Shown here one piece after another: positions 11,160 through 62,180 of a stretch of DNA of 64,000 bases. The stretch is taken from NCBI GenBank assembly GCA_965279375.1, contig OZ257156.1, forward strand, positions 3,456,001 through 3,520,000. Reading direction: 5' to 3'. Below the pieces are notes generated by a model. That model was not told the origin of the DNA and did not search any database. It saw only the letters and a list, made by a program, of their open reading frames with translations. This DNA comes from Gemmatimonas sp. Lineage in GTDB: Bacteria > Gemmatimonadota > Gemmatimonadetes > Gemmatimonadales > Gemmatimonadaceae. Position 1 is the stretch's first letter. Each line of letters starts with the position of its first letter. Position numbers and translations under genes: made by a program.

Positions 11160-11419
11160 AACGAGTCGGCGACGTTCGCGTCGCCAATCGACCAACGCAC
11201 GGCCGCGCTGCGCAAGAGAGTCACGTCGGCGTATCCGCTGCCGGCGCTGCAAAGCAGCATGCCGACAGGGCGCTGGCCTGGATGCCAATGACCGTTTCAG
11301 CGTGGGAACTGGACATCATGTCCAGGATGTGCGCGCTATCACGAAGATGACCGAAGTCGCGCGTACTCGTCCATCGGACAGTACGCGTGACTCGGCTTCG
11401 AAGCGCCTCTCACATTGCC

Positions 11420-45453: not shown

Positions 45454-45465
45454 CGTGAGCGCACT

Positions 45466-45999
45466 GTGAAGGCACTCGTTTCCTTGCCGGTCATCATCAC
45501 CGTCCTCCTGCTCGACATCATCTCGAAGCAGGTGGCGGTGAATGTGCTGGCACCGTCCGGCATGCCGCAGTCATTTCTGGGTGAAGTCGTGCGCTTCGCG
45601 CTCGTCTACAATCCGGGTGCGGCGTTCGGACTGTACCTCGGTGGCTACTCGCGATGGATTTTCATGGCGCTGACCTTTGGCGCGCTGATCATTCTGTGGC
45701 GCTTGTATCGCGCGGCCGAGAGCACCGATCTGCGTCGGGTGCTGGCCGTGTCGCTGGTGGCGGCCGGTGCGATGGGCAATCTCGTTGATCGTATTGCGTC
45801 GGAACTTGGCGTCGTGGATTTCATCGACGTCGGTTTCGGTGCGCATCGCTGGCCGACGTTCAACGTGGCCGACATGGCGGTCAGCGTCGGTGCGTTTTTG
45901 CTGGCGTTGGTACTGTGGCGTGAGGAGCAGCACGGTGCTCAGCAGGCCGCTCCTGCGGTCGACGCAACGGTGGCCGACGCCGTGGGGGAGTCGCGATGA
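45466..45999 (+). CDS. lspA: Lipoprotein signal peptidase II (copy 1)
   Basis: 'DIISK', 'NPGAAFG', 'GNLVDR', 'VVDFI' and 'FNVAD'. Confidence 0.93.
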   Translation: MKALVSLPVIITVLLLDIISKQVAVNVLAPSGMPQSFLGEVVRFALVYNPGAAFGLYLGGYSRWIFMALTFGALIILWRLYRAAESTDLRRVLAVSLVAAGAMGNLVDRIASELGVVDFIDVGFGAHRWPTFNVADMAVSVGAFLLALVLWREEQHGAQQAAPAVDATVADAVGESR

Positions 46000-46532
46000 G
46001 TGCAACGACGACCACGGGTGAGTCGCCTGCCGCGCCGCTCGGTCGCGCGGCGTCCTCTACGCCGCAGTTCTGGGTGGTCGTGGCGATCGTGACAGTGATC
46101 GACTTCATCACCAAGGCCATCGCCGCTGAGCGGTTGGTGCCGCGTCATGTGCCGCACCCGATTATCGGCGACTTTCTGCGCTTCACGCTAGCTTACAATC
46201 CGGGTGCGGCATTCGGCATGCACCTCGGACCGGCGTCGCGTTGGATCTTTGCGACGTTGAGCGTCATCATCGTCGTCGTGCTGCTGCGCGCGACGGCCGA
46301 CCTCACGCGCGAGTCGCGTCTGGCTGCGATCGGAGTGCCGATCGTCATTGGCGGAGCGATCGGCAACTTGCTCGATCGGATTCGTTATCGGGATGGCGTA
46401 GTGGATTTCATTGACATCGGAGTGGGCGACGTGCGGTTCTGGACCTTCAACGTGGCCGACTCTGCGGTGACCGTCGGGGCAGTTTGTCTGGTGCTGGCGC
46501 TGTGGCGTCAGGACCAAGACGCGCAATCATGA
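45996..46532 (+). CDS. lspA: Lipoprotein signal peptidase II (copy 2)
   Basis: 'DFITK', 'NPGAAFG', 'GNLLDR', 'VVDFI' and 'FNVAD'. Confidence 0.93.
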   Translation: MSATTTTGESPAAPLGRAASSTPQFWVVVAIVTVIDFITKAIAAERLVPRHVPHPIIGDFLRFTLAYNPGAAFGMHLGPASRWIFATLSVIIVVVLLRATADLTRESRLAAIGVPIVIGGAIGNLLDRIRYRDGVVDFIDIGVGDVRFWTFNVADSAVTVGAVCLVLALWRQDQDAQS

Positions 46533-47554
46533 GCGCCCCCGACACCGTCTACACGTTCGACATCAGCGAAGAGGCAGGAGAACGCCTCGACCTCGTGGTC
46601 GCTCGTCACTGCGACACCTCCCGCACGCAGGCTGCCACGCTCATCGCGAACGGCAACGTGCTGGTCAACGCGAAGGCGTTCAAGGCGTCGTATCGCACCG
46701 AGCCGGGCGATGCGGTGCAGGTAACCGTGCCGGCCCCGCCCGGACGCGACATCGAGCCCGAGGACATTCCGCTCAACGTCGTCTTTGAAGACGAGCATCT
46801 CGTCGTCATCGACAAGGCCGCTGGCATGGTGGTGCACCCCGCGCCCGGCAACTGGTCGGGGACGCTGGTGAACGCGCTGATGGGTCGTGGGGAGCCGTTG
46901 GCCGAAGGTGGCGGTACGGATCGTCCCGGCCTCGTGCATCGGCTCGACAAGGAAACGTCCGGGCTGTTGGTGGTGGCCAAGACCGACGCCGTTCATCGCA
47001 AGCTCAGTGCGGCCATCGCGGCGCGTCGCGTCACGCGGCGCTACGCGCTTTTGAGCTGGGGACACCTCAAGGCCGATACGCTGCGCGTGGACAAGCCGAT
47101 CGATCGCGATCCCAAGGACCGGACGCGCATGGCGATCGTGGACGGTGGCAAGCAGGCACGCACCGACTTCATGCGGCTGGCCCGCTTTGATTCCGTGGAC
47201 CTGCTGCGCGCGCATCTGCACACCGGGCGGACGCACCAGATTCGCGTCCACCTGTCGTCGGTGGGGCATCCGGTGGTTGGTGACGATACTTACGGCGGGG
47301 GCGGAGGTCGGCGACTCGCGGAGTTGCCGCCCAAGCGGTTCTTCCTGCATGCGGCGTGGCTGCGCTTTCGCCATCCGGTGACGGGAGAGCTGATGGACCT
47401 GCGCTCCCCGCTTCCCGACGACTTGCGGCGCTCCATCGCGGCCATGAGCGGGATGCCGGAACTCGCCACGACGGATGCACCGCTCGATGTCTTCCGATTC
47501 TTCCAGGCCGACGAGCCTGTCGTTCCCGAACCGACCGACGACGAACTCGAATGA
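46529..47554 (+). CDS. rluD: RluA-family pseudouridine synthase (RluD-like, S4 domain)
   Basis: N-terminal S4 'GERLD', 'HRLDKETSG' and 'TGRTHQIRVH'. Confidence 0.9.
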   Translation: MSAPDTVYTFDISEEAGERLDLVVARHCDTSRTQAATLIANGNVLVNAKAFKASYRTEPGDAVQVTVPAPPGRDIEPEDIPLNVVFEDEHLVVIDKAAGMVVHPAPGNWSGTLVNALMGRGEPLAEGGGTDRPGLVHRLDKETSGLLVVAKTDAVHRKLSAAIAARRVTRRYALLSWGHLKADTLRVDKPIDRDPKDRTRMAIVDGGKQARTDFMRLARFDSVDLLRAHLHTGRTHQIRVHLSSVGHPVVGDDTYGGGGGRRLAELPPKRFFLHAAWLRFRHPVTGELMDLRSPLPDDLRRSIAAMSGMPELATTDAPLDVFRFFQADEPVVPEPTDDELE

Positions 47555-47585
47555 GGGCGTGCCGGGCGCGTCCGCGCGCTCGGCC

Positions 47586-48002
47586 ATGTTGGACGACGAA
47601 GATCGGGCTTATGACGTGGTCGTGCGTGTCGCTGACCAACGCTACGGCATCCCGGTGTCGCAGGTCCGGGAGGTGCTGCGCCCGGGAGTGATCACGCGCG
47701 TGCCCGGCGCCCCCGAGATCGTGGTGGGTATCGTCAACGTGCGGGGCGCTGTCGTCACCGTGCTGGACCTTTCCGCACTGTTGACGGGAGAACGTGCCGT
47801 CACAGCGGCCTCGATCGTCCTGCTTGAGCACGGGACCCGCCTGGTTGGGCTGGCCGTGCAATCGGTGCGCGATGTCCGCACGATCCCGAGCGATGCTGAA
47901 GCCAGCAGCCTGGAGGTCGGCGCGGACGAGGACGTCGTACCGTTGGATGCGGCCGCGTTATGTGCGCGGCATCTGCTCTCTTCCGAGGAGATGCGACAGT
48001 GA
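47586..48002 (+). CDS. cheW: Chemotaxis adaptor CheW
   Basis: 'YGIPV.QVREV', 'ITRVPGAP..VVGIVNVRG.VV.V.DL' and 'GLAV'. Alternative GTG start at 47559. Confidence 0.85.
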   Translation: MLDDEDRAYDVVVRVADQRYGIPVSQVREVLRPGVITRVPGAPEIVVGIVNVRGAVVTVLDLSALLTGERAVTAASIVLLEHGTRLVGLAVQSVRDVRTIPSDAEASSLEVGADEDVVPLDAAALCARHLLSSEEMRQ

Positions 48003-48364
48003 GCCGGACGGTACTGATTTGCGACGATGCGATCTTCATGCGCACGATGGTGGGGGATATCCTCACGCAGGCGGGCTTCGAGATCATTGGCGAAGCGGAA
48101 ACGGGTGTGCAGGCGGTCGAGAAGTATCAGCAGCTCCGTCCTGATCTGGTGACGATGGACATCGTGATGCCCGACATGGGTGGCATCGACGCGGTCCGCG
48201 AGATCACCAAGCACGATCCGACGGCGCGCATTCTCATGTGCAGCGCGATGGGCCAGCAGGCGCTGGTGGTCGAAGCGATTCAGGCCGGCGCCAAGGACTT
48301 CGTCGTCAAGCCGTTTCAGCCGAGCCGAGTGCTCGAGGCCGTGACGCGCGTCCTCGCCGCGTAA
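47999..48364 (+). CDS. cheY: Chemotaxis response regulator CheY (Thermotoga/Bacillus-like)
   Basis: 'VLICDDAIFMR', phosphoacceptor 'VTMDIVMP', 'CSAMGQQ' and 'DFVVKPF'. Confidence 0.92.
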   Translation: MSRTVLICDDAIFMRTMVGDILTQAGFEIIGEAETGVQAVEKYQQLRPDLVTMDIVMPDMGGIDAVREITKHDPTARILMCSAMGQQALVVEAIQAGAKDFVVKPFQPSRVLEAVTRVLAA

Positions 48365-48398
48365 GCGGCAATCGCTCCGTCGTACCGGGACGCACGCG

Positions 48399-50306
48399 AT
48401 GGACCAAGCCCGATACGCGGAGCTCTTTCGCACCGAGTCGCGCGAGCATCTCGGCGAGATCGATGCGGCGCTGCTCGAGCTGGAACAGACGACCGATCGC
48501 ACGCGCCAGAGTGCCGCGATCGCCACACTGTTTCGCGGCACCCACACCATCAAGGGGATGGCGGGGGCGATGGGCTACGCAGTCGTCGAGCAGGTCGCGC
48601 ACGCACTGGAATCACTGCTCGAACGCATGCGGTCTGCCGGTGCATCGGTTGATCGTGCGCTGACTGCGCTGCTGTTCGATGGGAGCGACGCATTGCGTGT
48701 GGCGCTCGACGAAGCCGGCGCGGGGGATGCCCCCTCGAGTTCAGTGATCGAGGTGCTGGCACGGCTGCGCAGCACTGCGGGCGCGTCCGGTGCCGCTTCG
48801 GCCGCGCCGACGCCTGCGCCCAGTGTACCCTCGCTCGAGTCCGCGTCATCCTCGCCGACTGCAGAGACGGCCGCGATCGAGTCGCGCGTAGTCGACGTCG
48901 CACTGACTGCCGATTGTCCGCTCAAGGGCGTGCGCGCGATGCTGGTGATGGCGAGACTGCGCGCCGTGGCGACGGTGCACGCGGTGCAGCCGCCCGAAGA
49001 ACGCTGGGGCGACGAACGCTTTGACGGGGTTTTCGCCGCAAGCTTCTCCGGCGCGATCGATGCGACCGAACTCGAGGCAAGCCTGCGCGCGGCCGGTGAC
49101 GTTGCCAAGGTCCGCATTCGCGCCGCCGACCAAACGAACTCATCGCGCGCCGACAATGCGGCCATGCGCACAGTTCGTATCGACTTGCGTCGTCTCGACA
49201 CGCTGCTCGATCTGGTCGGTGAGTTGGTGATCACGCGCGACCGTTTGCTGCGCGAGACCGAACGCGCGATCGACTCGGGAGCAAACCGAGCGCTCGCGCG
49301 CGCTGCGCAGGACACGGCGCGACTGGTGAGTGCGTTGCAGGACGAAGTGCTGCAGGCGCGCATGGTGCCCGTTGGCCAGGTGTTCGACCGCTTCCCGCGT
49401 CTCGTGCGTGACGTGGCGCGCGAACTGGGCAAGGAAGTGCACTTCACCACAGAAGGGCGCGACCTCGAACTCGATCGATCACTCATCGATGCCATCGGTG
49501 ATCCGATCGTGCATCTGCTGCGCAACGCGCTCGATCATGGCATCGAGGAGCCCGCGCAGCGACGGGCGGCGGGAAAGCCGTCTACGGGTGAGTTGGTGCT
49601 ACGCGCCGGCCGTGACCGCGCAACAGTGGTGCTGCAGGTGGAGGACGACGGTGGTGGCATCGATCGCTTGGCGATTCTCGCGCGGGCGCAGGAGCAGCAG
49701 ATCGTAAGCGCAGACCTGACCACCCTCGACGACGATCAGCTGCTGATGGTTCTCGCACACCCGGGCTTCTCGACGGCGCGCGCGGTCACGGCGATCTCGG
49801 GACGAGGCGTGGGTGTCGATGTCGTCATGACGCGGGTGCGCGCGCTGGGCGGCACGCTGGAGGTGGAGACGCTCGAAGGGCAGGGCACCGTGTTCACGTT
49901 GCGCCTGCCGGCAACACTGGCCATCACGCGCGCGCTGCTGGTGCACGTAGGTGACGAAACGTACGCATTGCCTGCCGCACATGTGATCGAAGTCGCAGAA
50001 TACACGCCCGGCACGATCGTCACGGAGCAGGCGCACGAGCGCATGATGTGGCGTGATGAAATGCTGCCAGTGGTCCACCTTCGCGAGCGTTTCGGACACG
50101 CGCGCGCCGAACGTGAAACGTTTGTTGCCATCGTCGAATCGGCGGGACGACGCGCGGCATTGTTCGTTGATGCATTGCTCGCGCAACAGGACATCGTGGT
50201 CAAGCCGCTCGACGTGGTGCGTGGAAGTAGCGCGCTGTTCAGCGGCGCGACTGTGCTCGGTGACGGTAGCCCCGCACTCATCGTCGATGTAGGCGCGTTC
50301 TGCTGA
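48399..50306 (+). CDS. cheA: Chemotaxis histidine kinase CheA
   Basis: Hpt 'FRGTHTIKG', P2-like domain, 'LDLVGELVI', N-box 'HLLRNALDHG', 'DDGGGID', 'SGRGVG.DVV' and a C-terminal CheW domain. Confidence 0.95.
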   Translation: MDQARYAELFRTESREHLGEIDAALLELEQTTDRTRQSAAIATLFRGTHTIKGMAGAMGYAVVEQVAHALESLLERMRSAGASVDRALTALLFDGSDALRVALDEAGAGDAPSSSVIEVLARLRSTAGASGAASAAPTPAPSVPSLESASSSPTAETAAIESRVVDVALTADCPLKGVRAMLVMARLRAVATVHAVQPPEERWGDERFDGVFAASFSGAIDATELEASLRAAGDVAKVRIRAADQTNSSRADNAAMRTVRIDLRRLDTLLDLVGELVITRDRLLRETERAIDSGANRALARAAQDTARLVSALQDEVLQARMVPVGQVFDRFPRLVRDVARELGKEVHFTTEGRDLELDRSLIDAIGDPIVHLLRNALDHGIEEPAQRRAAGKPSTGELVLRAGRDRATVVLQVEDDGGGIDRLAILARAQEQQIVSADLTTLDDDQLLMVLAHPGFSTARAVTAISGRGVGVDVVMTRVRALGGTLEVETLEGQGTVFTLRLPATLAITRALLVHVGDETYALPAAHVIEVAEYTPGTIVTEQAHERMMWRDEMLPVVHLRERFGHARAERETFVAIVESAGRRAALFVDALLAQQDIVVKPLDVVRGSSALFSGATVLGDGSPALIVDVGAFC

Positions 50307-50395
50307 GCGAACACGCGCCTGTAGTCCAGCTGGATTCCGAACGACTACCGATCTGACGTGATCGTTGCGCTGCCCGAACTGAAAGCGGAGTGAAG

Positions 50396-51016
50396 ATGGA
50401 GGCGATTCGGTCGCTCAAGACGATACAGCTCGATGCGCTGCGCGAAACGGCGAACATCGGCGCGGGGCACGCCGCAACGGCGCTGTCGCAGATGACGGGC
50501 AGCACGATCATGATCAAGGTGCCCGCGATCAGCATCGCCAGCATCGATGATCTCCCCGCGCAGTTCACGGACGAAGAGGAGCCGGTCGCCGCGGTGCTCA
50601 TGCACATGCTCGGCGATTTGAGTGGACGCACCCTGCTCGTCTTTCCGCGTCCGACGGTGATGCGTCTTGCGGAACTGATGCTGCGTCGTCCCGTGGGCTC
50701 GTCGCTCGCGCTCGGTGAGCTGGAGACCTCGGCCATCAAGGAAGCGGGCAATATTCTCAGCGGCGCGTACATGAACGCGCTCAGCGACTTCCTCGGCATG
50801 CTGCTCCTCCCGTCACCGCCCACGCTGGTGATCGACATGTCCACGGCCGTGTTGAGCAGCGCCTTCGCCGAGTTTGCACCGGACCCGGACGCGATCATTT
50901 GCGTCGAGAGCGAGTTCATGCTCACCGAGACCGGTCACACGCTCCGCGGATTCTTCTTGCTTTTGCCGGACCCCGCGTCGCTGCAGGTGATGTTGCGCGC
51001 ACTGCGTCTCGCGTAA
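50396..51016 (+). CDS. cheC: CheY-P phosphatase CheC
   Basis: Two ExxN motifs: 'DALRETANIGAGHAATALS' and 'SAIKEAGNILSG.Y..AL'. Confidence 0.9.
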   Translation: MEAIRSLKTIQLDALRETANIGAGHAATALSQMTGSTIMIKVPAISIASIDDLPAQFTDEEEPVAAVLMHMLGDLSGRTLLVFPRPTVMRLAELMLRRPVGSSLALGELETSAIKEAGNILSGAYMNALSDFLGMLLLPSPPTLVIDMSTAVLSSAFAEFAPDPDAIICVESEFMLTETGHTLRGFFLLLPDPASLQVMLRALRLA

Positions 51017-51039
51017 CCCGCAGGTCAGGCGCAGTGCAG

Positions 51040-53676
51040 ATGGAGCCGATGGCCCCCGGAGGACGCGACGCCGAGCTGCTGCGCGCGATGCTGACGCGCA
51101 TCGATCAGCAGGACCCGGGTGCGTTCAACAACCTCGGCGTGCTGTATCACAGCAAGGGACTCTACGCCGAGGCGGTGGACGCCTTCCTGCGCGCGCTTGC
51201 CCTCGATCCTCGCATGCGGACGGCGGCGCGCAACCTCGAGATTGCGGCGACACGCGACGGTGCCTGCGACTCGCGTCTTGCGAGTTTAGCGGCCCGGCTG
51301 GAGATCGATGCAGACGACGTGGTGGCGCTGCGTGAGCGTGCGCGGCTGCTGCGACTCATCGGCCGCCACACGGAGGCCTCGCAACAACTCGACGCGCTGA
51401 TCGCGGCCGATCCCGACGATACCGCCTCACTCTTCGAGCGCGGACTGATCGAGCAGCGTGCGGGCGACCTGCGTCGCGCGCAGCGGTGGTTCGAGCGCGC
51501 AGTGAACGTGTCCTCCGGTGATCCGATTCCGCGGCTGCATCTCGCCGAGGTGCTGTACCAGCGAGGGCAGAACGAGCAGGCGCTGGAGGCGCTCGAGTCG
51601 CTGTTGACGTTGTGGCCGAACATGGCCGATGCGCACCTGCTGCACGGCTTCGTGCTCGGCGACATGGGGCGCCACGAGGCCGCACGCGATGCGTCGCGCA
51701 AGGCCTCTGCGCTCAACCCGTCGTTGCAGACACTGCAGCCCGATCTCTCGCTCGACGGTGGTGTGGCTCCGATTCCGTACGCACCCGTTCAGCGCGATGT
51801 CCCCGCTGAAGGCGCGTTGGCACGCTACGGACTTGGTCTGGCGTTTCGTCAGCGTGGCTACTTCGACGAAGCCCGCCGCGAGTTCGAGCGAGCGCTCGCG
51901 CAGGGTGAGGATGCGCGCCTTGCACGACACGCGATTGCCGAGCTCGATCTCGTCGCCGGTCGTTTCGCGGATGCTCGCGCCGCGTACGAACAGCTGCTGC
52001 AGGAGCAGGCCGACCAGCCGCGGCTCTGGAACGAGCGCGGCGCGGCGCTGCATCAGGGCGGTGATGTCGAAGGCGCGGCGGAGAGCTATCGACGTGCGCT
52101 GCGCATCGATCCGCGCTACGCAATTGCGTACAACAATCTTGGCGTCGCGCTTTCCGATCTCGGCGAGGCGTCGGCCGCGCGCGAGGCACTCTTGCGTGCG
52201 GTGGAGCTGGATGCTGCGCTCGCACGCCCCAAGCTGAATCTGGCACGCTGGTACGTGCGCCATCGCGATCCACTGGCCGCGCTGTCGTTGTTGCGCGAGT
52301 TCGTGGCGTTCCACGCGGACAATGCTGACGCGTGGCATGACCTGGGTGTCGTCTTTCAGCTGCTGCATCGCACCGATGAAGCCCGCGATGCGCTGGCGCG
52401 TGCCATCGAGCTGCGTCCCGATCACGCCGAGGCGCGGTACGCGCTGGCGCAGGTGCTGGCATCGTTGGGAGATGACGATGGCGCGCTGCGCGAGACGCAG
52501 CGTGCGTTGGGGCTCGCCCCGGTTCGTGTGGAGCCGCGACTGATCATCGTGATCGCGTTGCAACTCGAGTGTCCTGAAGCGGCTGGTCTGCTGGATCTGC
52601 TGGCGATCGCCGCGGATGTGCCGCTTGCCGGTGTGTCGCTCGACGAGCAGACGGTCGCCGGGTTGCTGCCGCAGTTGGAGCCAGTCGCGCCAATTGCCAT
52701 CGTCGACGATGTGGCCGCGCGAATCACGCGATTCTGCGAAGAGGGCGATGCCTTCGCCGCGCGGCGACTGCATGGCGAGGCCGGCGATCGTTACGCAGCC
52801 GCGCGCGGCTTACTGGAGGGCGAAGGGCTTCCTGCGATCAGCGGCGACGGCTCGCTGGGGCCGCTGTGGCATCGTGCGGTCGTTGGCGAGGCGCGCTCGC
52901 TCTGCCTGCTTGGCTCGGGACATCATGCGATGTCGCGACTGCGCGGTCTCGCGGCGCAGTATCCGGAGGACGCCGAAGTTGTGGCGCTCTTCGCGTCGAG
53001 TGCTGCCGCGGCTGCAGCCCGTCAGGAGGCACCGGCTGAGGTCGTACCAGTGCTGCTGCGTCGGCTGCTGCGGCTGGAAACCGACAGTGCGGCACTGCTG
53101 CACTTCGCAGGCGACACGGCGGTGAGTATCGGAGATGGCGTCCTCGCGCTCGCCTGCTACCGGCGTGCGCTCGCGATCGACCCAACTCGGCCATCGCCGC
53201 GCGTGGCCATCGCGCGCGTGTTACGTCATCGGGGCGATCTGCAGGCCGCACGGCTGGAGCTCGTAGCGGCGCTGGCGACTGCGCCGGAGTTCCGCGATGC
53301 GCTGTTGGAGTTGGCGCGCGTGAACCTCGCGACGCGAACGGTGCGCGAGTCTGTCGCCGGACTCACGCGACATCTCGCTGCCGTACCGACAGACCTCGAC
53401 GCGCTCGTGCTGCTGATCGAACTGCTCGTGGCAGTTGACCGTGATGCTGACGCGCGTGTGGCGGTCAGTCGCGTGCTCCGGCATGACGCAGAGCATGTCG
53501 GTGCGCTCTGGTTTGACGGGGTTTTGCTCGCTCGACAGTCGCGCATGCGCGAAGCCGTCGATCGGTGGATGCGGGTGCAGCGTTCTTCCGATGACGAATT
53601 CGCGCCGCGTGCGACGAAGGCATTGGCGAAGGTCGAGGAACGTGAGCAGCTGAGCGATCTGCGGAAGGCTTCGTGA
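51040..53676 (+). CDS. Large cytoplasmic TPR-repeat protein
   Basis: Many TPR motifs ('AFNNLGVLY', 'AYNNLGVAL', 'AWHDLGVVF') and no signal peptide. Confidence 0.88.
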   Translation: MEPMAPGGRDAELLRAMLTRIDQQDPGAFNNLGVLYHSKGLYAEAVDAFLRALALDPRMRTAARNLEIAATRDGACDSRLASLAARLEIDADDVVALRERARLLRLIGRHTEASQQLDALIAADPDDTASLFERGLIEQRAGDLRRAQRWFERAVNVSSGDPIPRLHLAEVLYQRGQNEQALEALESLLTLWPNMADAHLLHGFVLGDMGRHEAARDASRKASALNPSLQTLQPDLSLDGGVAPIPYAPVQRDVPAEGALARYGLGLAFRQRGYFDEARREFERALAQGEDARLARHAIAELDLVAGRFADARAAYEQLLQEQADQPRLWNERGAALHQGGDVEGAAESYRRALRIDPRYAIAYNNLGVALSDLGEASAAREALLRAVELDAALARPKLNLARWYVRHRDPLAALSLLREFVAFHADNADAWHDLGVVFQLLHRTDEARDALARAIELRPDHAEARYALAQVLASLGDDDGALRETQRALGLAPVRVEPRLIIVIALQLECPEAAGLLDLLAIAADVPLAGVSLDEQTVAGLLPQLEPVAPIAIVDDVAARITRFCEEGDAFAARRLHGEAGDRYAAARGLLEGEGLPAISGDGSLGPLWHRAVVGEARSLCLLGSGHHAMSRLRGLAAQYPEDAEVVALFASSAAAAAARQEAPAEVVPVLLRRLLRLETDSAALLHFAGDTAVSIGDGVLALACYRRALAIDPTRPSPRVAIARVLRHRGDLQAARLELVAALATAPEFRDALLELARVNLATRTVRESVAGLTRHLAAVPTDLDALVLLIELLVAVDRDADARVAVSRVLRHDAEHVGALWFDGVLLARQSRMREAVDRWMRVQRSSDDEFAPRATKALAKVEEREQLSDLRKAS

Positions 53677-54842
53677 GCCTCGAAGGACGCATCCGCGACC
53701 TCGGCCTGCCGGAGGTCTGCCAGCTGCTCGGGGCGAGCCGCAAGACCGGCACGCTGCGCGTGCTCGCACCTCTTCGAGCCCGCGACGCCGAGATTCGGTT
53801 CATAAGTGGACAGATCGCCGACGCCCGACAGTGGCAGACTGACGTGCCTCTGAACGAGCTGCCGGCGTCGGTGCCTACGCCCGATGCTCGTGCGGTCGAG
53901 GCGTGCGTGCTCGAAGTCCTCACTTGGGGGGATGGCGAGTTCCAGTTTGTGGCCGAGAAGGGAGCTACCCGATCGGCCAGTCCGGTTCGATTGAACGTGG
54001 AGCCGCTGCTCGTTGAGGCGGCGCAACGCGCCGAGGTGTGGCAGCGCGTGCGCGATCGCATCGCGGGCCCGCAGGCAGTGCCTGCCTTCGTCGACATCGA
54101 TCCGCAACAGCTCCCATTGCTACGGCTCGTGCCGCAGGAGTGGGAAGTGCTCACCCGGGTCGATGGTGCGCGGGATCTGCAGGCGCTCGCCGCGGTGCTG
54201 GGGCGCAGTTTGCTCGACGTCGCGCAGATCGTGCACGCGCTCGTCGGCGCGGGCGTGCTCGCCATTCGCGATCTGACCATCGCGCCACGGCGACACCCCA
54301 CGCCGCCGACGCAGTTGGCCGTGCCGTCATGGCCGGACGCGTTCGATCCCGACGACGATGAGCGTGTGCTCGACGCCGGTGACCTTCTCGCCGACGCGTT
54401 CCGCGCCGACGCGCTCGACGCCGGAGATTCGAGTGACATCGACGACGCCGTCTTCGATCCGATTGCCGCTGGTGTGACGGATGCGGACGGAATTCCCCGT
54501 CGACTAACGCCGCGCACCACCGACGTTATCGCCGTTTCGGATCGAGTATTGCAGGCGGCGTCGACGCTCGAATTCCCCAGTGAAAATGCCGTTGCGTCCT
54601 CGCCAGTGCAGCAGTCCTTGTCGCAGGAGACGCGGCAACGTCGTGCCAGCGGGGTGAGCGCAGTGACGCTGTGCCTGCATGGTGACGATGCCGCCCGACA
54701 TGGTGACTTGGCGGGTGCGTTGACGTGCTGGAGTGCGGCGCTACGTGCCGATGCGACGTCCATCGACGCGGATCGGGTGCGCGAGGCGATTGCGCTTGCT
54801 GCTCGTCTGCACGCGTTGCTGCACCCGTCGGGACGAAGCTAG
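53673..54842 (+). CDS. DUF4388 (PatA-N-like) protein with winged-helix-like segment and acidic linker
   Basis: 'LEGRIRDLGLPEVCQLL..SRKTGTL', 'LTWGDGEFQF', 'LLVEAA.R..W' and 'EWEVL..VDG.R'. Confidence 0.8.
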   Translation: MSLEGRIRDLGLPEVCQLLGASRKTGTLRVLAPLRARDAEIRFISGQIADARQWQTDVPLNELPASVPTPDARAVEACVLEVLTWGDGEFQFVAEKGATRSASPVRLNVEPLLVEAAQRAEVWQRVRDRIAGPQAVPAFVDIDPQQLPLLRLVPQEWEVLTRVDGARDLQALAAVLGRSLLDVAQIVHALVGAGVLAIRDLTIAPRRHPTPPTQLAVPSWPDAFDPDDDERVLDAGDLLADAFRADALDAGDSSDIDDAVFDPIAAGVTDADGIPRRLTPRTTDVIAVSDRVLQAASTLEFPSENAVASSPVQQSLSQETRQRRASGVSAVTLCLHGDDAARHGDLAGALTCWSAALRADATSIDADRVREAIALAARLHALLHPSGRS

Positions 54843-54867
54843 AACGCAGTCAGAGAGGAGCGGGCGA

Positions 54868-55506
54868 ATGCCCATCGTAGATCACGCCACGCGGCTGATC
54901 ACATGCAAGCTGGTCTACTACGGACCGGGTCGATCGGGAAAGACGACGAACCTGACCTACCTGCACTCGGCGTTGCCGAGCGGGCAGGTGGGCTCGCTCA
55001 CGTCACTCGCGACTCGCCGCGACCGCACGCTCTTCTTCGACTACCTGCCGGTGGATCTCGGAACGGTCGGCGCGTACAAGGTGCGCTTTCAGCTCTACAC
55101 CGTTCCCGGCCAGCCGTACTACCGCAGCATTCGCCAGCTTGTGCTGCAGGGCGCTGACGGCGTCGCGTTCGTTGCGGACAGCCAGCGCCATCGCTGGGAA
55201 GACAACATCGACAGCATGCAGGACATGCACGCGAACCTGGCCGAGCACGGCATCGACGCGCGCGCGCTCCCGATGGTCATGCAGTACAACAAGCAGGATC
55301 TTCCGCCATCGCTGGCGGCCACCGTCCCCGAGCTGTCGCGCGCGCTGAACTTTCGCGGCGTTCCTGAGTTCGGCGCCGACGCTCCGAATGGCATCGGCGT
55401 GTTCGACACGCTGCGCGCACTCGGCATGCGCGTGCTGCGTCGCCTTGGCGCCGACAGCGCAGCGGAAGACGAACGGCATGACGGCATCACGGCAGGTGCG
55501 GCATGA
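54868..55506 (+). CDS. mglA: MglA-family small GTPase
   Basis: 'KLVYYGPGRSGKTTNL', 'DRTLFFDYLP', 'LYTVPGQ', 'FVADSQ', 'QYNKQDL' and 'GVFDTL'. Confidence 0.92.
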   Translation: MPIVDHATRLITCKLVYYGPGRSGKTTNLTYLHSALPSGQVGSLTSLATRRDRTLFFDYLPVDLGTVGAYKVRFQLYTVPGQPYYRSIRQLVLQGADGVAFVADSQRHRWEDNIDSMQDMHANLAEHGIDARALPMVMQYNKQDLPPSLAATVPELSRALNFRGVPEFGADAPNGIGVFDTLRALGMRVLRRLGADSAAEDERHDGITAGAA

Positions 55507-57467
55507 CACCGCACCCGGAGGAGCCGGCCTACCGCTTCGACAACTTCGTGGTGGGCGCGTCAAACCGACTCGCGTCGTCCGCAGCCATGGCCGTGGCCGA
55601 TGCACCGGGGGCGGCGTACAATCCGTTGTTCGTCTACGGGGACTCGGGGCTGGGCAAGACGCATCTCGTCGCGGCGATCGCCCATCGCGCGCTGGCGTCG
55701 CGTCCGGAGTTGCGTGTCGAACTGAGTAGCGGTGAGGAGCTGGCCGAGCGATTGCACCAGGCGATCGCGACCGGGCAACAGGAGCAGTTCACCGAGCGCT
55801 ATCGACAGGTGCAGCTGCTGGTGCTCGATGACGTGCAGTTTCTCGCCGGCCAGCGGGAGACGCAGAGTGAGTTGCTGCGGCTGTTCAATCTCATGCAGGG
55901 CGCCGGCCGTCAACTGGTGATGACCAGTGATCGACCACCCAGCGAAATCCCGGACGTCGATCAGCGCCTGCTGTCGCGCTTCTCCGGTGGGTTGATCGTG
56001 GATGTGGGCGCGCCCGATTACGAGATGCGTCTGGCCATTCTGCGAAACGCGGCCGACGTACGTGCCCTGCAGTTTGGCGACGGCGTGCTCGAGGAAATGG
56101 CGCGACTTGCCTTCGGCAACGTGCGTGAACTCAAGGGCGCGCTGAACAAGATCACGGCATTCCAGCAGCTCGATGGCACGGTCATCACGCCCAATGACGT
56201 GCGCGCCGTGCTGGGCGAGCGCGCGTCGGTGGCGTCCGCTCCCGACCGTCGCGACGTCGCGCCGACGATGCTTGGCGCGGAGTATGAAGGCTTCCTCGCC
56301 GATGTGCTGCAGGAGGTCGAGACGCGCGTGGAGAAGTGGCGCGTGGTGTTGGGTGAAGCCTGCAGCTATTGGCGTGCGGAAGGGTTTGTCACGCAGGTAT
56401 TGGAGCGTGCGGTCGCGCATCCTGTCCAGCCCGACGTGAACGGACTGCTCGCCACGTTCAGCGCGGCGGTCGAGCATCTGCGCGCGATCGAGGCGCAGGC
56501 GGTGCTCCTCGATCCTGCGCTCCGCGGCCACAGTGCCTTTCGCAATCCCGAAGCGGTGGCGGAAGCGCAGGCGTTGCTCGATCGTGCGATGGCGACTGCC
56601 ATTCCGCTGCCTGCGCCCAATGCGGCGTTTACACGAGATGCTCTTGAAGTGGGCAGCGCCAATCAACTGGCGCTCAAGGCCTTCGACGCCGTGGTCGAGC
56701 ATCCGGGCGCGCGCTACAACCCGCTCTTCGTGCACGGCCCGAGTGGAGTGGGGAAGACGCACGTGCTGCACGCATTGGGCAATGCCATGCGCGCGGCGTG
56801 GCCCGAGAAGGCGATCGCGTGCGTGACCGGCGTGGCCTTCGGGGACGAATTGGTGCAGGCGCTGCAGGAGGGCGGGGTGGAGCGGTGGCGTGCGCGCTAT
56901 CGCGCCGCTGACGTGCTGCTGGTGGACGATGTCCATTCTCTGCGCGACCTCGAGCGGACGCAGGAAGAACTCTTCCACCTCTTCAATCACGTGTACGATC
57001 GCGGGGGGCAGATCGTGCTCACGGCCGATCGTCCTCCGCGTGAGTTGACGGGCTTTGCCGATCGACTGCGGTCGCGATTCGAAGGCGGCCTGGTGGTGGC
57101 GATGCATGGCCCCGATCGCGCACTCCGCGAACGACTCGTCTCGCGCTGGCTCGCTGAAGCGGCTGCTGAGCCCACGCAGGAGTTGGTCGCGATGCTCGCT
57201 GATCGCGACGTCAGCAGCGTGCGCGAGCTCAACGGACTCTTCAAGCGCATCGAAGCCGCCTCCGATCTGAACGGTTTTGCGATCAGCCTCGAGTCCGCGC
57301 AGCGCGCACTCGGCATTCAGCCGACGCGCGTCACCCGTCGTGTGCCCACACGTGTCCTATCCACCGGCGCGGACGGAGTGTCCATCGACGACTTCTTTCT
57401 CGATCGCGAGAAGATGATTCTCGATTGGCCCGAGATCGGCGGACGCGTGATCGAGGAGCTGCGCTGA
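55503..57467 (+). CDS. Protein with two tandem DnaA/Hda-type AAA+ modules; no DnaA domains I, II or IV
   Basis: Module 1: 'YRFDNFVVGASNRLA, YNPLFVYGDSGLGKTHL, LDDVQF, TSDRPP, RLLSRF, NVRELKG'. Module 2: 'YNPLFVHGPSGVGKTHV, VDDVH, TQEELFHLFN, TADRPP, RLRSRF, SVRELNG'. Confidence 0.9.
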   Translation: MTPHPEEPAYRFDNFVVGASNRLASSAAMAVADAPGAAYNPLFVYGDSGLGKTHLVAAIAHRALASRPELRVELSSGEELAERLHQAIATGQQEQFTERYRQVQLLVLDDVQFLAGQRETQSELLRLFNLMQGAGRQLVMTSDRPPSEIPDVDQRLLSRFSGGLIVDVGAPDYEMRLAILRNAADVRALQFGDGVLEEMARLAFGNVRELKGALNKITAFQQLDGTVITPNDVRAVLGERASVASAPDRRDVAPTMLGAEYEGFLADVLQEVETRVEKWRVVLGEACSYWRAEGFVTQVLERAVAHPVQPDVNGLLATFSAAVEHLRAIEAQAVLLDPALRGHSAFRNPEAVAEAQALLDRAMATAIPLPAPNAAFTRDALEVGSANQLALKAFDAVVEHPGARYNPLFVHGPSGVGKTHVLHALGNAMRAAWPEKAIACVTGVAFGDELVQALQEGGVERWRARYRAADVLLVDDVHSLRDLERTQEELFHLFNHVYDRGGQIVLTADRPPRELTGFADRLRSRFEGGLVVAMHGPDRALRERLVSRWLAEAAAEPTQELVAMLADRDVSSVRELNGLFKRIEAASDLNGFAISLESAQRALGIQPTRVTRRVPTRVLSTGADGVSIDDFFLDREKMILDWPEIGGRVIEELR

Positions 57468-59188
57468 TGGCCATCCGCGGCAACTTGAATGAGGCGAGTC
57501 TCGCCGACGTGCTGCAGCTCCTGGCCCTTGGTCAAAAGACCGGATGCCTCAGCGTGGCACGCGAAGGCAGCTTCGGCACCATCCACTTCGACGGTGGACG
57601 CATCGTCTTCGCGTCCATCGTCAACCGGCGCGATCGCCTTGGCGATCGGCTGGTACGCAACGGTGCTATCGCCGCCGATACGCTGGCGCGACTGGTGGGC
57701 ACCGCAGCGCCCAACGACGATCGAGCACTCGCTGTGGCGTTGCTCGATCGCGGTCTCGTGGACTTCGACCAGCTCGAAGCGATCTACCGGGTACACGTCG
57801 AAGAGTCGGTCTACTTCCTGCTCGGTTGGACACAGGGGACGTTCACCTTCGAGGCTGCGCCGCGCGCCGACGAGTCGGACATCCTCGTTTCCATCAGCGC
57901 AGATTCGCTGCTGCTGGAGGGGGCTCGTCGCGTCGACGAGTGGACGCTGGTCGCGAAGAAGATCCCGAGTCTCGATCTGATCTTCGAAGCGGACATCACG
58001 CGTCTCGCCGGCCGCGAGGCGCCGCTGAGCGCGACGCAGGAGAAGCTGCTGCCACTGCTCGATGGCACGCAGGACGTCAACAGCATCATCGAACGTTCTG
58101 GGCTCGGCGAGTTTGAGGTAGGCAAGGCGCTCTTCGGCTTGCTGACCGCGGGATACGTGCAGCGTGTCGGGCGCAGCGCGGCACGGCGTCCGCCGCCGCC
58201 AGAGAGCCGTGTGGCGGAGCACCGAAACCTTGGCGTCGCGTTCTATCGCACGGGGCTGTACGACGAGGCGCAGCGGGAATTCCGCCGCGTGCTCGAACTG
58301 CGCGACAGCGACAGTGCGGCGCGATTCCACTTGGGTCTCGTGCATCTGCGTCGCGGCGAGTGGGATGAAGCCGTCTCGGTGCTCCAGCGAGCCACCGCGG
58401 AACCGGACGCGCCGGCCGCGGCCTTTCACAATCTCGCGTACGCCTGCGAGCGGCTCGGACGATTGGACGATGCCCGAGCCATGCTGGCCGAGTCGGAGCG
58501 TCGTCAGACCGCGGGCGACCCGCGCACCCAGCTGTCGTTGGCAATCGTCGCGCTGACGGCGGGTGAGTTGGTGGCGGCGGAATCGCACTTGGCGTCGGCG
58601 CGCGAGCTCTGGGGCGCGCGCCAGCCGTCGGCGGCGTGGTTTCACGCGGCGGGGCTCACGGCGGCGCTCGCCGGCGACTTGCCACGCGCCACGCGCGTGC
58701 TGGAGGAAGGGATCGGCATGCACCCCCATGCGGCGACCTTGCACAACAATCTCGCGGTGGTGCACGAACGCCGTGGCAGCTACGAACTCGCTGCTCGTAC
58801 CATCGAGCACGCGCTGCTGGAGGACGCCAACGCTGCGCATCTGCACAAGAACCTTGGCGACTATCTGTATCGAGCGCAGAGGTACGACGAGGCGTTCGAG
58901 GCATTCACACGCGTCGTGCGCCTCGACGCCACGCACGGCGCCGATGTGCACCTCAAGCTTGGCAACATTCTCTATCGCCGCGGGGAGCTGCGTGACGCGC
59001 AACTCGCCTGGGAGCGGGCACAAGTGATCGAGCCACACAACGCTATCGTGCGAGCCAATCTCGACGCATTGGGACGTGCCGACCTTCGCGAGTCTTCGCG
59101 CGGGAGCCGGGCCACTTCACCCGCGCTGCGCACGGTCACTGATCCGTCGCCCGCGTCAACGACAGCGATGGCCGAGGAAGCGGCATGA
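57467..59188 (+). CDS. DUF4388 (PatA-N-like) + winged-helix-like + TPR protein
   Basis: 'IRGNL.EASLADVLQLL..GQKTGCL', 'W.QGTFTF', 'LLLEGARRVDEW' and C-terminal TPRs ('HRNLGVAFY', 'LHNNLAVV', 'LHKNLGDYLY'). Confidence 0.85.
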   Translation: MAIRGNLNEASLADVLQLLALGQKTGCLSVAREGSFGTIHFDGGRIVFASIVNRRDRLGDRLVRNGAIAADTLARLVGTAAPNDDRALAVALLDRGLVDFDQLEAIYRVHVEESVYFLLGWTQGTFTFEAAPRADESDILVSISADSLLLEGARRVDEWTLVAKKIPSLDLIFEADITRLAGREAPLSATQEKLLPLLDGTQDVNSIIERSGLGEFEVGKALFGLLTAGYVQRVGRSAARRPPPPESRVAEHRNLGVAFYRTGLYDEAQREFRRVLELRDSDSAARFHLGLVHLRRGEWDEAVSVLQRATAEPDAPAAAFHNLAYACERLGRLDDARAMLAESERRQTAGDPRTQLSLAIVALTAGELVAAESHLASARELWGARQPSAAWFHAAGLTAALAGDLPRATRVLEEGIGMHPHAATLHNNLAVVHERRGSYELAARTIEHALLEDANAAHLHKNLGDYLYRAQRYDEAFEAFTRVVRLDATHGADVHLKLGNILYRRGELRDAQLAWERAQVIEPHNAIVRANLDALGRADLRESSRGSRATSPALRTVTDPSPASTTAMAEEAA

Positions 59189-59664
59189 GCGAAATCCAGG
59201 TTCGTATTGCCGACTATGCGGTGGCCGGCAGTGAGTCGGTGCTCGTGACCAACGGCATCGGCTCGTGTGTCGCGATCGCGCTGTATGAGCGCGAGGCGCG
59301 GGTGGGAGCGCTGGCGCACATTCTGCTCCCCAACGAGGTGCTCACCGCGTCGCAGGAACCGCCGGGCAAGTGCGCATCATCGGCGATTCCGGTGATGGTG
59401 CGGCGCATGCGTGAGCTCAAGGGCACTGGTGAGATCCAGGCGCGGCTGATTGGCGGCGCCAGCATGTTCGCGCCTTTGCTGATTCCCGGTGCGCTCTCGC
59501 TCGGCGCGCGGAACATCGCAGCCGCGCGGGCCGCACTCGCTGCGGCGGACATTCCCGTGGTGGGCGAAGACGTCGGCGGCGATCACGGACGGTCGGTGCA
59601 CTTCGCGCTCGAGGATGGCAGTCTGTTGGTCAGGTCCGTGGCGAAGGGCGATGTCCGACTCTAG
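59185..59664 (+). CDS. cheD: Chemoreceptor glutamine deamidase CheD
   Basis: 'GIGSCVAI' (Cys), 'LAHILLP' (His), 'GGASMF', 'GARN' and 'EDVGG..GRSV'. Confidence 0.9.
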   Translation: MSEIQVRIADYAVAGSESVLVTNGIGSCVAIALYEREARVGALAHILLPNEVLTASQEPPGKCASSAIPVMVRRMRELKGTGEIQARLIGGASMFAPLLIPGALSLGARNIAAARAALAAADIPVVGEDVGGDHGRSVHFALEDGSLLVRSVAKGDVRL

Positions 59665-60793
59665 CGCTCCACTTCGTCGCGTCGGCGAGGGCTCCCGGCC
59701 ACGCGTGCTCGTCGTGGACGACAGCGCGTTCATGCGTCGCATCGTCAGTGATGTCGTTGCATCGAGCGGCGAGTTCGAAGTGGTGGGGACGGCGCGCGAC
59801 GGCGTGGATGCGTTGCGACAGGTGACGCGCCTCGATCCAGACATCGTCACGCTCGACGTGGACATGCCCGAGATGGATGGCTTGTCCGTGCTGCGCTGCA
59901 TCATGCAGGAGAATCCGCGCGCCGTCGTCATGCTCAGTGCAGGTGGAGCAGATGGCGGGGCTGATGCGACGCTGCGCGCGCTGGAACTCGGCGCCGTGGA
60001 GTTCGTGCGCAAACCGTCGGGAGCGATCAGTCTGGATCTCGAAGACGTGTCGGAGCAGCTGCTCGACGCACTCCGCGCCGCCGCGTGCATCAACCTCGAT
60101 ATTCTTCCGCGCCCGGTCGATCGCGGTGCTATCGCCGTGGAGTTGCCGCCGCACCAGCAGCACTCAGGACGTCGGGCCACGCAGCTCGTGTGCATCGCGG
60201 CCTCCACGGGTGGCCCTGCGGCACTGGCCAAGGTCATTCCCAAGCTGCCGCGGTTTGCGCAGACGGCGGTTGTGATCGTGCAGCACATGCCCGCCGGATT
60301 CACCGCGAGCTTCGCCGCACGGTTACGCGGCGCCTCGCGCCTGCCGGTGCACGAGGCGCGCAATGGCGATGCGTTGTTTGCGGGGCACGTCTATGTCGCG
60401 CCGGGCGGCTTTCATCTGCGTGTGGGCGGTCCGGCCGGTCTGCCGGCGCTCTTTCTGGACTGCGGCCCGACGGAATGGGGCGTGCGCCCTGCCGCCGATC
60501 CGCTGTTCAAGTCTGCGGTGCCGTACTTCGGCGCGGCGATCATTGGCGTGGTCATGACCGGCATGGGCTGCGACGGCGCGGCTGGCTTGGCCGCCGTGCG
60601 CAACGCTGGCGGTCTGGCGCTCATTCAGCAGCGCGATACGGCCGTGATTCCCGGCATGCCCGATGCCGCGCTGCGCACCGCAGGTGCCGATCGCATTGTC
60701 ACGCTGGACGAAATGGCAGACGCGATCGTCGAGTGCAACGCTCTGCGCGAGTCGAGTGCGAGCGATTCGTCGCTCTTCGAGGTCGCGTCGTGA
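59651..60793 (+). CDS. cheB: Protein-glutamate methylesterase CheB
   Basis: Receiver 'VLVVDDSAFMR..TLDVDMP' and triad 'ASTGGP', 'VQHMP', 'MTGMG.DG'. Confidence 0.94.
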   Translation: MSDSSAPLRRVGEGSRPRVLVVDDSAFMRRIVSDVVASSGEFEVVGTARDGVDALRQVTRLDPDIVTLDVDMPEMDGLSVLRCIMQENPRAVVMLSAGGADGGADATLRALELGAVEFVRKPSGAISLDLEDVSEQLLDALRAAACINLDILPRPVDRGAIAVELPPHQQHSGRRATQLVCIAASTGGPAALAKVIPKLPRFAQTAVVIVQHMPAGFTASFAARLRGASRLPVHEARNGDALFAGHVYVAPGGFHLRVGGPAGLPALFLDCGPTEWGVRPAADPLFKSAVPYFGAAIIGVVMTGMGCDGAAGLAAVRNAGGLALIQQRDTAVIPGMPDAALRTAGADRIVTLDEMADAIVECNALRESSASDSSLFEVAS

Positions 60794-61323
60794 GCACCGG
60801 TCAGTTCCGCTCGACGACCATGTTCGCGCCCCGCGCCCGCGCATCGGTTCCAGCGGTGGATCGCGCGACGTTCGTTGTCTTTGCGATGGCCGATCGGCGC
60901 TTCGCCGTGCCGGTCGAATCGGTGGAGCGGGTGCTGCGGGACTCGGTGGCGGCAGGTCCGGCGACCACTGCTGCGTCGGTGAACTACGGTGGCCAGTCGT
61001 ATGCCGTGGCCGATCTGGCCAGCGCGCTCGGTGTGGAGTTTGCACCCACGGCGGCGTCGCGTGTGCTGGTGCTGTCGGGCGGTGGAGAGCATCGCGCGGT
61101 GATCGTGGATCGGGTGCTGGAAGTCGCCACGATCGATGCCGGTATCGTGGAGGCGGCGGACGCGGTGCACGACGGGATCGCGGCGCTGCCGAACGCGGGC
61201 GTGCGCGGCGTCTTCACACGCAATGGCGCAGCGGTGATTGTTCTCGATGTCTCGCGCCTCCTCGACGAGACGTTGCACACCGCCCACGGCCCCGCCGCTT
61301 TCCGCAAGGAACGTTCGTCATGA
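60790..61323 (+). CDS. Divergent CheW-like protein
   Basis: 'FVVF.MADRRFAVPVESVERV', 'AVIVDRV' and 'VRGV....IVLDV..LL'. Confidence 0.75.
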   Translation: MSTGQFRSTTMFAPRARASVPAVDRATFVVFAMADRRFAVPVESVERVLRDSVAAGPATTAASVNYGGQSYAVADLASALGVEFAPTAASRVLVLSGGGEHRAVIVDRVLEVATIDAGIVEAADAVHDGIAALPNAGVRGVFTRNGAAVIVLDVSRLLDETLHTAHGPAAFRKERSS

Positions 61324-62180
61324 CGAGCAGCCCGCTGTCCGAACTGCAATCGCTGCGCGCACGACAGGCCGCGATCGCGTCGGCCTTGTCGGCCAGCCCC
61401 AGCGCGGAATCGCGAGCACAACTCAAGCAGGACATCATCGCGCTCTTTCGCGAGACCGATGCGGTCTACGCAGCGCTGGGCGAGCTAAAGTCCGACGTGA
61501 AGGCGTTGGCGGAGACGTGGAAGCAATTGGACGGCCGAAGCGCATCCAGTCCGCACGCCGGCGTCTCATCGCGGGTCGATCACTTGGGCGCGTCGACCTT
61601 CGTCGAGAAGGGGTGGTCCAAGCTCTCGCTCGGCGATGCGGCAGGCGCTGAAGTGGCGCTGCGGCGCGCGTTGGAACTGGCGCCGGCGGATGACGAAGCG
61701 GAAACGCTGCTCGGCTGGGCGCAGATGCTCCAGGAGCAGTATGACAGTGCGTTGCTCACGTTCCACAACGTGCTCATGCGCGACCCGCAGAACACGCTTG
61801 CCCGCACGAACGTGGGATTCATCTGTCTGCGCAAGAAGAGCTACGGCGAAGCCATCGAACATCTTTCGCGCGCCATTCGCATCGACAGCGATCGCAAGGC
61901 CACGCTGTACGCTCATCTCTATCTCGGCATGGTCTACCGCGAGCGTGAGATGTACGCCGACGCAGAACTGTTCTTCCGCAAGGCGATCGAGCTCGGACCG
62001 AATCTGATTCAGGCGTGGTACGAATTGGGTCGTGCCCGCTGGTTCGCCGGGGAGCACGCCGGTGCGCGCGATGCGTGGCGTGCCGGTGCGGAGGCCAACA
62101 AGTTCAATCCATGGGGAAAGCGCTGCGCCGAAACGCTGGAGTCGGTCGATCGTGGGGAGGCTCCGCCGCGCGACGCGTAG
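61320..62180 (+). CDS. TPR protein with N-terminal coiled coil
   Basis: Heptad-like N-terminus and TPRs ('ARTNVGFI', 'AHLYLGMVY', 'AWYELGRA'). Confidence 0.85.
   Translation: MTSSPLSELQSLRARQAAIASALSASPSAESRAQLKQDIIALFRETDAVYAALGELKSDVKALAETWKQLDGRSASSPHAGVSSRVDHLGASTFVEKGWSKLSLGDAAGAEVALRRALELAPADDEAETLLGWAQMLQEQYDSALLTFHNVLMRDPQNTLARTNVGFICLRKKSYGEAIEHLSRAIRIDSDRKATLYAHLYLGMVYREREMYADAELFFRKAIELGPNLIQAWYELGRARWFAGEHAGARDAWRAGAEANKFNPWGKRCAETLESVDRGEAPPRDA

Follow-up and report, generated by a model that had tools for sequence, protein, structure and literature searches.

Why would a Gemmatimonas genome encode, within a chemosensory operon, a protein with two DnaA-type ATPase modules and no DNA-binding domain? 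The gene lies in a stretch of 64,000 nucleotides that we analyzed as a whole (the window; assembly GCA_965279375.1, contig OZ257156.1, positions 3,456,001 to 3,520,000). A sequence-only reading of the window had proposed that the product is a covalent head-to-tail AAA+ pair, acting as a nucleotide switch or filament in signaling or modulating the true DnaA. ATPases of the DnaA clade have known roles in replication and in controlling it. We find that this tandem protein is a real, old DnaA variant in a signaling operon, apparently undescribed before. It is probably best read as a paralogue of DnaA that has been recruited into a chemosensory/cell polarity pathway, where it would serve as an accessory ATP switch, tethered by its tail to a PATAN/TPR scaffold and dispensable as an ATPase. 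The parts on which this argument draws are as follows.

55503..57467, + strand: tandem DnaA-domain-III protein, 654 residues (module 1, helical linker domain, module 2, C-terminal tail)
55521..56222, + strand: AAA+ module 1 (M1), residues 7-240, with ATP site and lid intact
56274..56339, + strand: linker helix 1, residues ~258-279, motif E-F-x-x-F-L-x-D/E, present also in mini-proteins
56289..56600, + strand: helical linker domain, residues 263-366
56607..57317, + strand: AAA+ module 2 (M2), residues 369-605, with sensor I/II and lid variable across the family
57390..57464, + strand: C-terminal tail, residues 630-654, motif E-K-x-x-x-x-W-P...R-x-x-E-E, a predicted ligand for the TPR groove of the PATAN/TPR protein encoded next
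57467..59188, + strand: PATAN (DUF4388)/MshEN-type RLG insert/TPR protein, start overlapping the tandem stop (TGATG), predicted docking partner

Pfam Bac_DnaA matched two stretches of the 654-residue protein (E 1.8e-105), as had been expected. Both modules of the window protein carry Walker A (GLGKT/GVGKT; K52 and K418), Walker B (DD; 109-110 and 475-476), sensor I (TSDR/TADR), box VII (RLLSRF/RLRSRF; R159 and R525), and sensor II (VREL in each). In an alignment to 8btg, residue 7 corresponds to Bacillus subtilis DnaA residue 112. Therefore, domains I and II are absent, as the sequence-only reading stated, but the protein does not start directly at YRFDNF, which nine residues precede. A genome-wide search for domain IV (PF08299) recovered canonical dnaA (C1:1199859) and, below threshold, one further match (E 0.4). 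The tandem gene gave none, and residues 586-654 matched no Pfam family. A short tail does replace domain IV, but it runs 11 residues farther than had been described, past ...LDWP to ...IEELR. Canonical dnaA (472 residues) and dnaN lie elsewhere, at C1:1198743-1201507, with the GC-skew minimum near 1.22 Mb, and the tandem gene is ~2.3 Mb away from them. Judged from its sequence, the tandem protein almost certainly has no means of binding DnaA boxes and does not serve as the initiator. Public sources systematically mis-annotate such proteins as chromosomal replication initiators. The TIGR00362 cutoff is reached only by summing two stretches of the protein, which would explain such labels.

M1 and M2 are identical at 86/234 positions, and their identities to the genome's own DnaA are 107/233 and 92/231, respectively. 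DnaA structure 8bv3 matched a module with E 1.9e-57, and a fold search matched a single module to DnaA at a time (root mean square deviation [rmsd] 1.4 Å over 231 columns; TMq 0.35). An AlphaFold model built from 105 sequences (predicted local distance difference test [pLDDT] 91; predicted template modeling score [pTM] 0.58) shows a helical domain (263-366) between two AAA+ modules; the tail is modeled with lower confidence, and the chain is coil beyond residue 602. The ~130-residue helical linker that had been described does join the modules, but it consists of a folded helical domain (~105 residues, 263-366; pLDDT mostly >95) and ~23 residues of disorder. This domain had no Pfam family at cutoff and no usable ESM Atlas match, and a wide fold search of 48,161 chains gave background helical matches only (best Z 6.0, rmsd 7.5, 109 aligned). 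A weak word-based search for longer linker-bearing proteins returned 168 matches; all 120 listed carry PF00308, with no other architecture among them. Full-text literature searches, whose coverage took in few subscription papers, found no description of the tandem protein.

A mis-assembly or recent fusion of two genes was rejected. The modules share only 86/234 positions, homologues are widespread, and there are no internal stops among the 150 homologue matches listed. Also, M1, M2, and canonical DnaA fell into separate groups in a quick tree with several long branches (Shimodaira-Hasegawa-like approximate likelihood ratio test 91, 91, and 92). Therefore, the tandem arrangement is old. A linker profile search over 151 evenly drawn Gemmatimonadota genomes was positive in 102 (including two unpublished ones, G056 and G096) and did not find the domain in 49. 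DUF4388 occurs in 109 of the 151, including all 102 linker-positive genomes. A linker scan of GTDB genomes narrowed 368 pattern matches to 23 loci, mostly WOR-3/TA06, and each of five of these genomes that we checked has a separate domain-IV-bearing dnaA. Some variants stand apart. P0057 (673 residues), on a 2.6-kb contig, has tandem DnaA modules followed by domain IV and is an independent recent duplication. P0095 (738 residues) is a family member with a response-regulator receiver domain in place of the tail. L110 (G049:C50), at a contig end, is a second linker-bearing copy in one genome.

Natural deletions reveal which parts persist. We counted them in 72 of the 150 best representatives, those beginning with Met and ending in the tail. 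M2 was lost and the linker kept in 7 of the 72 (L105, L106, and L109 show this loss), and 2 have M1 and the tail only, one of them with helix 1. L133 also has M1 and the tail only. At eight loci from four genera, both modules are lost and an open reading frame of 60 to 73 codons is kept in the slot. It encodes a mini-protein made of linker helix 1 and a W-x-W-P...R-x-x-E-E tail. These mini-protein reading frames are as follows.

L099:9927-10145, + strand
L100:5827-6042, + strand
L101:2097-2312, + strand
L102:7903-8082, + strand
L103:6747-6926, + strand
L132:9778-9984, + strand
L135:7697-7912, + strand
L136:7949-8131, + strand

A clean loss of the gene at L099-L103 was rejected because the mini-protein frame is kept in the slot. 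At seven of the eight loci, it is stop/start coupled to the PATAN/TPR gene. Between the L102 and L103 frames there are 7 synonymous and 0 amino acid changes, and L102 and L136 differ at 15/13/44 codon positions 1/2/3. From these codon position differences, the frame looks to be under selection as a protein. The predicted tether and one linker helix are what survives when both ATPases are deleted. Such mini-proteins would escape gene callers and profile searches. L132, the sole mini-protein locus without a stop/start overlap, has a 15-bp tandem repeat between the frame and the PATAN/TPR gene.

What the tail might hold on to was addressed by complex prediction. For the L102 mini-protein paired with the PATAN/TPR protein of its locus, the interface score (interaction prediction score from aligned errors) was 0.81, and the best of three controls gave 0.02. 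The mark for this score is reached by 116/157 solved and 2/215 mismatched pairs, counts that are only a rough guide for the alignments of our own used here. The docking runs shared at least 90% of contacts, with partner pLDDT at least 69. In the predicted interface, the tail (mini-protein residues 33-60) lies in the TPR groove, and its core, residues 42-60, corresponds to residues 636-654 of the window protein. Helix 1 is outside the confident interface. Our initial expectation that the tail would sit on the RLG insert or PATAN core was dropped because the model places it on the TPR domain. Conservation of polar TPR positions is 0.65 in the interface (n=16) versus 0.42 elsewhere (n=62), and the contacting asparagines are kept in both phyla (N322, N427, N428, and N462 in the window's PATAN/TPR protein). 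The model supports binding of the tail to the adjoining PATAN/TPR protein, and a tether of this kind to the scaffold is likely.

Residues and motifs of the modules were counted in 61 full-length Gemmatimonadota-type proteins, including L029 (G155, an unpublished genome); no conclusion of ours depends solely on this genome or on G056 and G096. Both modules had been described as complete. This is true of the window protein but not of the family, in which the full catalytic motif set is present in M1 of 57/61 and in M2 of only 14/61. Richardson et al. list the essential B. subtilis DnaA filament residues (PMC6669920), and the order in a legend of that paper sets L269/H231/R206/R202/R264 apart from R321/G317/F218/E183/N187; single-stranded-DNA-binding residues were taken from a section of PMC10721633. 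On the Arg-finger face, R202 is kept in 29 M1 and 57 M2 modules, R206 in 1 and 57, H231 in 0 and 35, and R264 in 58 and 59; R260/R264 of M2 are kept in 59/61. The window M2 has R463, R467, H492, R525, and L530 on this face. On the nucleotide face, F218 is kept in 53 M1 and 9 M2 modules and G317 in 58 and 26. M1 has E/D183 in 59/61, whereas E183 is not among the top residues in M2, so that M1 retains the nucleotide face, including equivalents of F218, G317, and R/K321. The two faces are complementary, as expected if a closed dimer holds a single composite ATP site, and not as expected of an open filament. The simplest reading, which we infer from sequence, is a single interface in which the M2 Arg finger completes the M1 ATP site. 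We moderately favor a closed dimer with the M2 Arg-finger face packed on the M1 nucleotide face. Of the earlier proposals, the covalent head-to-tail AAA+ pair in signaling gains from these complementary faces, as it does from a chemosensory-MglA operon in two phyla. The filament is weakened, because the outer faces have decayed.

ParA/ParC-type ATPases offer an analogy for a polymer that positions other proteins at a cell pole. By that analogy, the tandem protein could form ATP-dependent filaments or rings through both faces and place the chemosensory/MglA complex at the pole. In line with this, 14/61 proteins, the window's included, have every motif in M1 as well as in M2, and the M1 Arg finger is kept in 58/61. 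However, B. subtilis filament interface residues are lost from each module (R206 and H231 in M1, E183 and F218 in M2), and 13 to 14 of the 61 have gaps in the M2 lid. A polymerizing localization factor is therefore highly improbable.

Among 22 linker-scan proteins, M1 Walker A is absent in 10 (a count that takes the L080 Walker A variant as intact), and in 21 the M2 Arg-finger motif is gone. Many WOR-3 forms have an M2 with Walker A/B only, and the decaying module differs from lineage to lineage. These observations, together with the deletion of both modules at eight loci, would suit a pure scaffold or pseudo-ATPase, in which the AAA+ modules passively space the protein or hold a nucleotide and only the helix and tail adaptor is essential. 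However, the full catalytic set in 57/61 M1 modules over family-level distances, with R260/R264 in 59/61 M2 modules, would be difficult to account for in this lineage unless the composite site is active, and we consider a pure scaffold unlikely.

Hda is an AAA+ protein that descends from DnaA, has no domain IV, and exposes an Arg finger. An Hda-like role, or one as a filament cap, would have M2 act on the true DnaA through its Arg finger and thereby couple initiation to the MglA/Che state. The genome has three PF00308 matches, DnaA and the two modules, and hence no separate Hda-like match. Across the family, M2 keeps not only its Arg-finger face but also single-stranded-DNA-binding residues (I190 in 39/61, K222 in 43/61, and E228 in 61/61), whereas M1 has lost I190 and K222 (0/61 each). 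Both of these points would suit a link to replication. However, the window protein has H85/Q117 at I190/K222 in M1 and V451/L483 in M2, the latter giving a leucine at K222, and neither of its modules combines these residues with both filament faces, as the DnaA modules do. Its TIGR03420 (Hda) score is below cutoff (E 1e-47; 162.6 against 194.8). An N-terminal clamp-like motif, scanned with a pattern that we take to be the clamp-binding one, was found in 0/61 (with two internal chance-type matches) and in 1/22 linker-scan proteins. The exception is L074 (L074:9149-11239, + strand), whose N terminus carries Q-L-x-L-F. Its two modules are both intact, and it lies downstream of a large TPR gene but is not part of a che/mglA operon. 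It could be an Hda-like form, and it is the outlier that speaks for replication. Against such a link, the M2 Arg-finger motif is missing from the WOR-3 forms (21/22), M2 is deleted in several lineages, the eight loci without either ATPase retain the tail, 49/151 genomes have no linker domain, and the gene is ~2.3 Mb from dnaA-dnaN. The proposed modulation of the true DnaA is thus poorly supported, and we regard it as quite improbable.

The tethered ATP switch, which remains the reading we favor, also has to fit its operon. The other genes are as follows.

47475..51016, + strand: cheW, cheY, cheA, cheC
51037..53676, + strand: large TPR protein, start uncertain
53673..54842, + strand: upstream PATAN (DUF4388) protein
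54868..55506, + strand: second MglA paralogue, no adjoining Roadblock gene; stop overlaps the tandem start (ATGA)
59185..62180, + strand: cheD, cheB, cheW-like gene, small TPR protein

The order is thus cheW cheY cheA cheC, TPR, PATAN, mglA, tandem gene, PATAN/TPR, cheD cheB cheW, TPR. The two PATAN genes flanking mglA and the tandem gene are the only two DUF4388 genes in this genome, and canonical mglBA is at C1:3060364-3061593. We chose 40 loci across four families from the listed homologue matches, and all 40 have the order mglA, tandem gene, PATAN/TPR. In the linker-scan set, a PATAN/TPR gene is 3' of the tandem gene at 20/23 loci (two of the others are at contig edges, and L074 differs), mglA precedes it at 16, and a Roadblock-like gene does so at 3. 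mglA is missing from L102, L103, L104, L133, and L136, and che genes are missing at L066, L067, and L135, where the core is retained. At the mini-protein loci, mglA (L102, L103, and L136) or che genes (L132 and L135) may be gone, but the PATAN/TPR gene is always there. Coupling to mglA, as had been proposed, is therefore real but not the tightest link. The most constant neighbor of the tandem gene is the downstream PATAN/TPR gene, which almost never changes.

Other features of the operon vary. Roadblock genes lie 5' of mglA in many relatives (18/40 by weak tblastn), and cheR follows the PATAN/TPR gene in 29/40. This genome's operon has none of the TPR-Roadblock gene, two Roadblock genes, and cheR seen in many relatives (window 53673-55506 and 57467-59664). 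L047, L065, L114, and L122, which are one genus-level group and one other locus, encode a divergent MglA with altered G1/switch motifs, possibly inactive. Some operon copies in both phyla have an extra AAA_22 ATPase gene, presumably ExeA-like, between cheB and cheW (L108:14638-15717 and L075:15896-16705, both + strand). Upstream of the operon, two adjacent signal-peptidase-II-like open reading frames and a DksA/TraR-like one, all identified by eye, lie between ileS and rluD (window 45031-46529, + strand).

The downstream PATAN/TPR protein may also connect the switch to cyclic di-GMP (c-di-GMP). A tandem RLG insert in its PATAN domain agrees with the MshEN c-di-GMP motif, as set out in part of Wang et al. 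(PMC5013675). Relatives exceed the NF053729 cutoff of 38 bits (L034, 52.1; L057, 47.2; L084, 48.4). The insert is deleted at 7/8 mini-protein loci and at no examined locus that retains an AAA+ module. Also, P0059 and P0060 (1990 and 1876 residues) consist of an MshEN c-di-GMP domain, a DnaA AAA+ module, ~1300 helical residues, and a second DnaA AAA+ module. The tree puts them in a separate lineage, as an independent duplication. This fusion is a second, independent hint of a c-di-GMP link, and it would mean that recruitment occurred twice. We tentatively infer that the scaffold's MshEN-type insert might gate the ATPase. The c-di-GMP motifs in this genome's own operon are degenerate or absent.

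The output is the weakest step of the proposed mechanism. It is plausible, if short of probable, that the complex tunes a Che to MglA/Roadblock signal to a surface motility machine, most likely type IV pili. Where the relevant preprint treats Synechocystis, PATAN domains bind PilB1/PilC (bioRxiv 10.1101/2021.06.11.447907). At 16 linker-scan loci, a PilT-type gene is found close 5' of mglA, and at 12 of these it is the immediate neighbor. Flagellar chemotaxis is disfavored as the output, because 76/102 linker-positive genomes have no flagellin-type match (26/102 do) and the core stays where che is lost. One of this genome's four PilT-family ATPase genes (TIGR01420) is at window 11387-13006 (+ strand), ~42 kb upstream of the tandem gene.

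Several observations count against parts of this scheme. The docking was modeled with a relative's mini-protein and not the window protein. Peptides are often seen in TPR grooves among solved complexes, many TPRs conserve asparagines in the groove, and the operon's two other TPR proteins are possible competitors. Helix 1 was undetected in 20/72 tail-bearing representatives, the tryptophan-containing tail pattern occurs in only 11/22 linker-scan proteins, and many linker-scan loci are close kin. M1 keeps its own Arg finger (58/61) and M2 its Walker A lysine (61/61), neither of which a strictly closed dimer needs, and a pTM of 0.58 with a single-module fold match does not fix the M1-M2 geometry. 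The window's own c-di-GMP motif is degenerate (NF053729, 19.2 bits against the cutoff of 38). The loci without the insert, seven in all, group in one clade, which makes loss of the insert with the modules a single event. Repeated co-loss was therefore rejected, and an independent origin for L132 was not established (approximately unbiased test P value, 0.457). Finally, PilT occurs in 147/151 genomes, which makes its presence uninformative.

A conserved two-phylum DnaA-clade family in a chemosensory-MglA pathway would extend the roles of this fold and supply polarity systems built on small GTPases with an ATPase. Thanks to the deletion series, the problem comes down to three testable parts: the 25-residue tail, the TPR groove identified above, and the single composite ATP site predicted to pair K52/D109 with R525. 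A fuller history is rather unlikely to hold in all its parts: a single duplication of the DnaA core, before Gemmatimonadota and WOR-3/TA06 separated or with transfer between them, would have produced a self-capped, c-di-GMP-gated ATP switch plugged by a short linear motif into a PATAN/TPR scaffold beside MglA. If true, it would be a new class of DnaA-derived bacterial signaling enzyme.

How does this protein compare with known systems? Each module is a DnaA domain III (PF00308 and TIGR00362; PDB 8btg, 8bv3, 2z4r, and 2hcb). Unlike DnaA, the protein has two modules per chain, no domains I, II, or IV, a linker domain without a Pfam family, a conserved C-terminal tail, and filament residues split between modules. 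Its gene is in a signaling operon, outside the dnaA-dnaN/origin locus, and both ATPases can be lost. It resembles Hda as a DnaA-type AAA+ protein without domain IV that matches TIGR03420, but it is tandem, falls below that family's cutoff, lacks the N-terminal clamp motif, and has lost the Arg finger in WOR-3 forms.

The operon as a whole is closest to the Myxococcus xanthus Frz-MglA/MglB-SgmX polarity system, in which there is also an orphan MglA paralogue, SofG (PMC4316618 and PMC11580455, in the sections on these proteins). Chemosensory genes and a Group 1 MglA are common to both, as are TPR scaffolds and PATAN proteins, which in Myxococcus act on type IV pili; Roadblock genes adjoin mglA in many relatives but not in this genome. 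Here, unlike there, the parts are in one operon with CheC and CheD, and those sections mention no DnaA-derived ATPase. The operon's TPR proteins matched an SgmX model only weakly, below cutoff. Table S2 of PMC4316618 gives Gemmatimonas aurantiaca GAU_1409 as "PATAN>MglA>-PATAN>", with the tandem-gene slot unlabeled; "DnaA" was not found in the searched supplements of that paper, and a term search of a Gemmatimonadota survey (PMC10581226) returned no mention of DnaA or MglA. PATAN as a pilus motor output domain has a parallel in cyanobacterial PixE/PixG, in the part of the preprint that covers them (bioRxiv 10.1101/2021.06.11.447907). As in MshE/PilB, a tandem RLG motif, degenerate in this genome, is near an ATPase (the motif as given in part of PMC5013675). 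Unlike in MshE/PilB, the motif belongs to a PATAN/TPR protein distinct from the ATPase, which is of the DnaA type and not a secretion ATPase.

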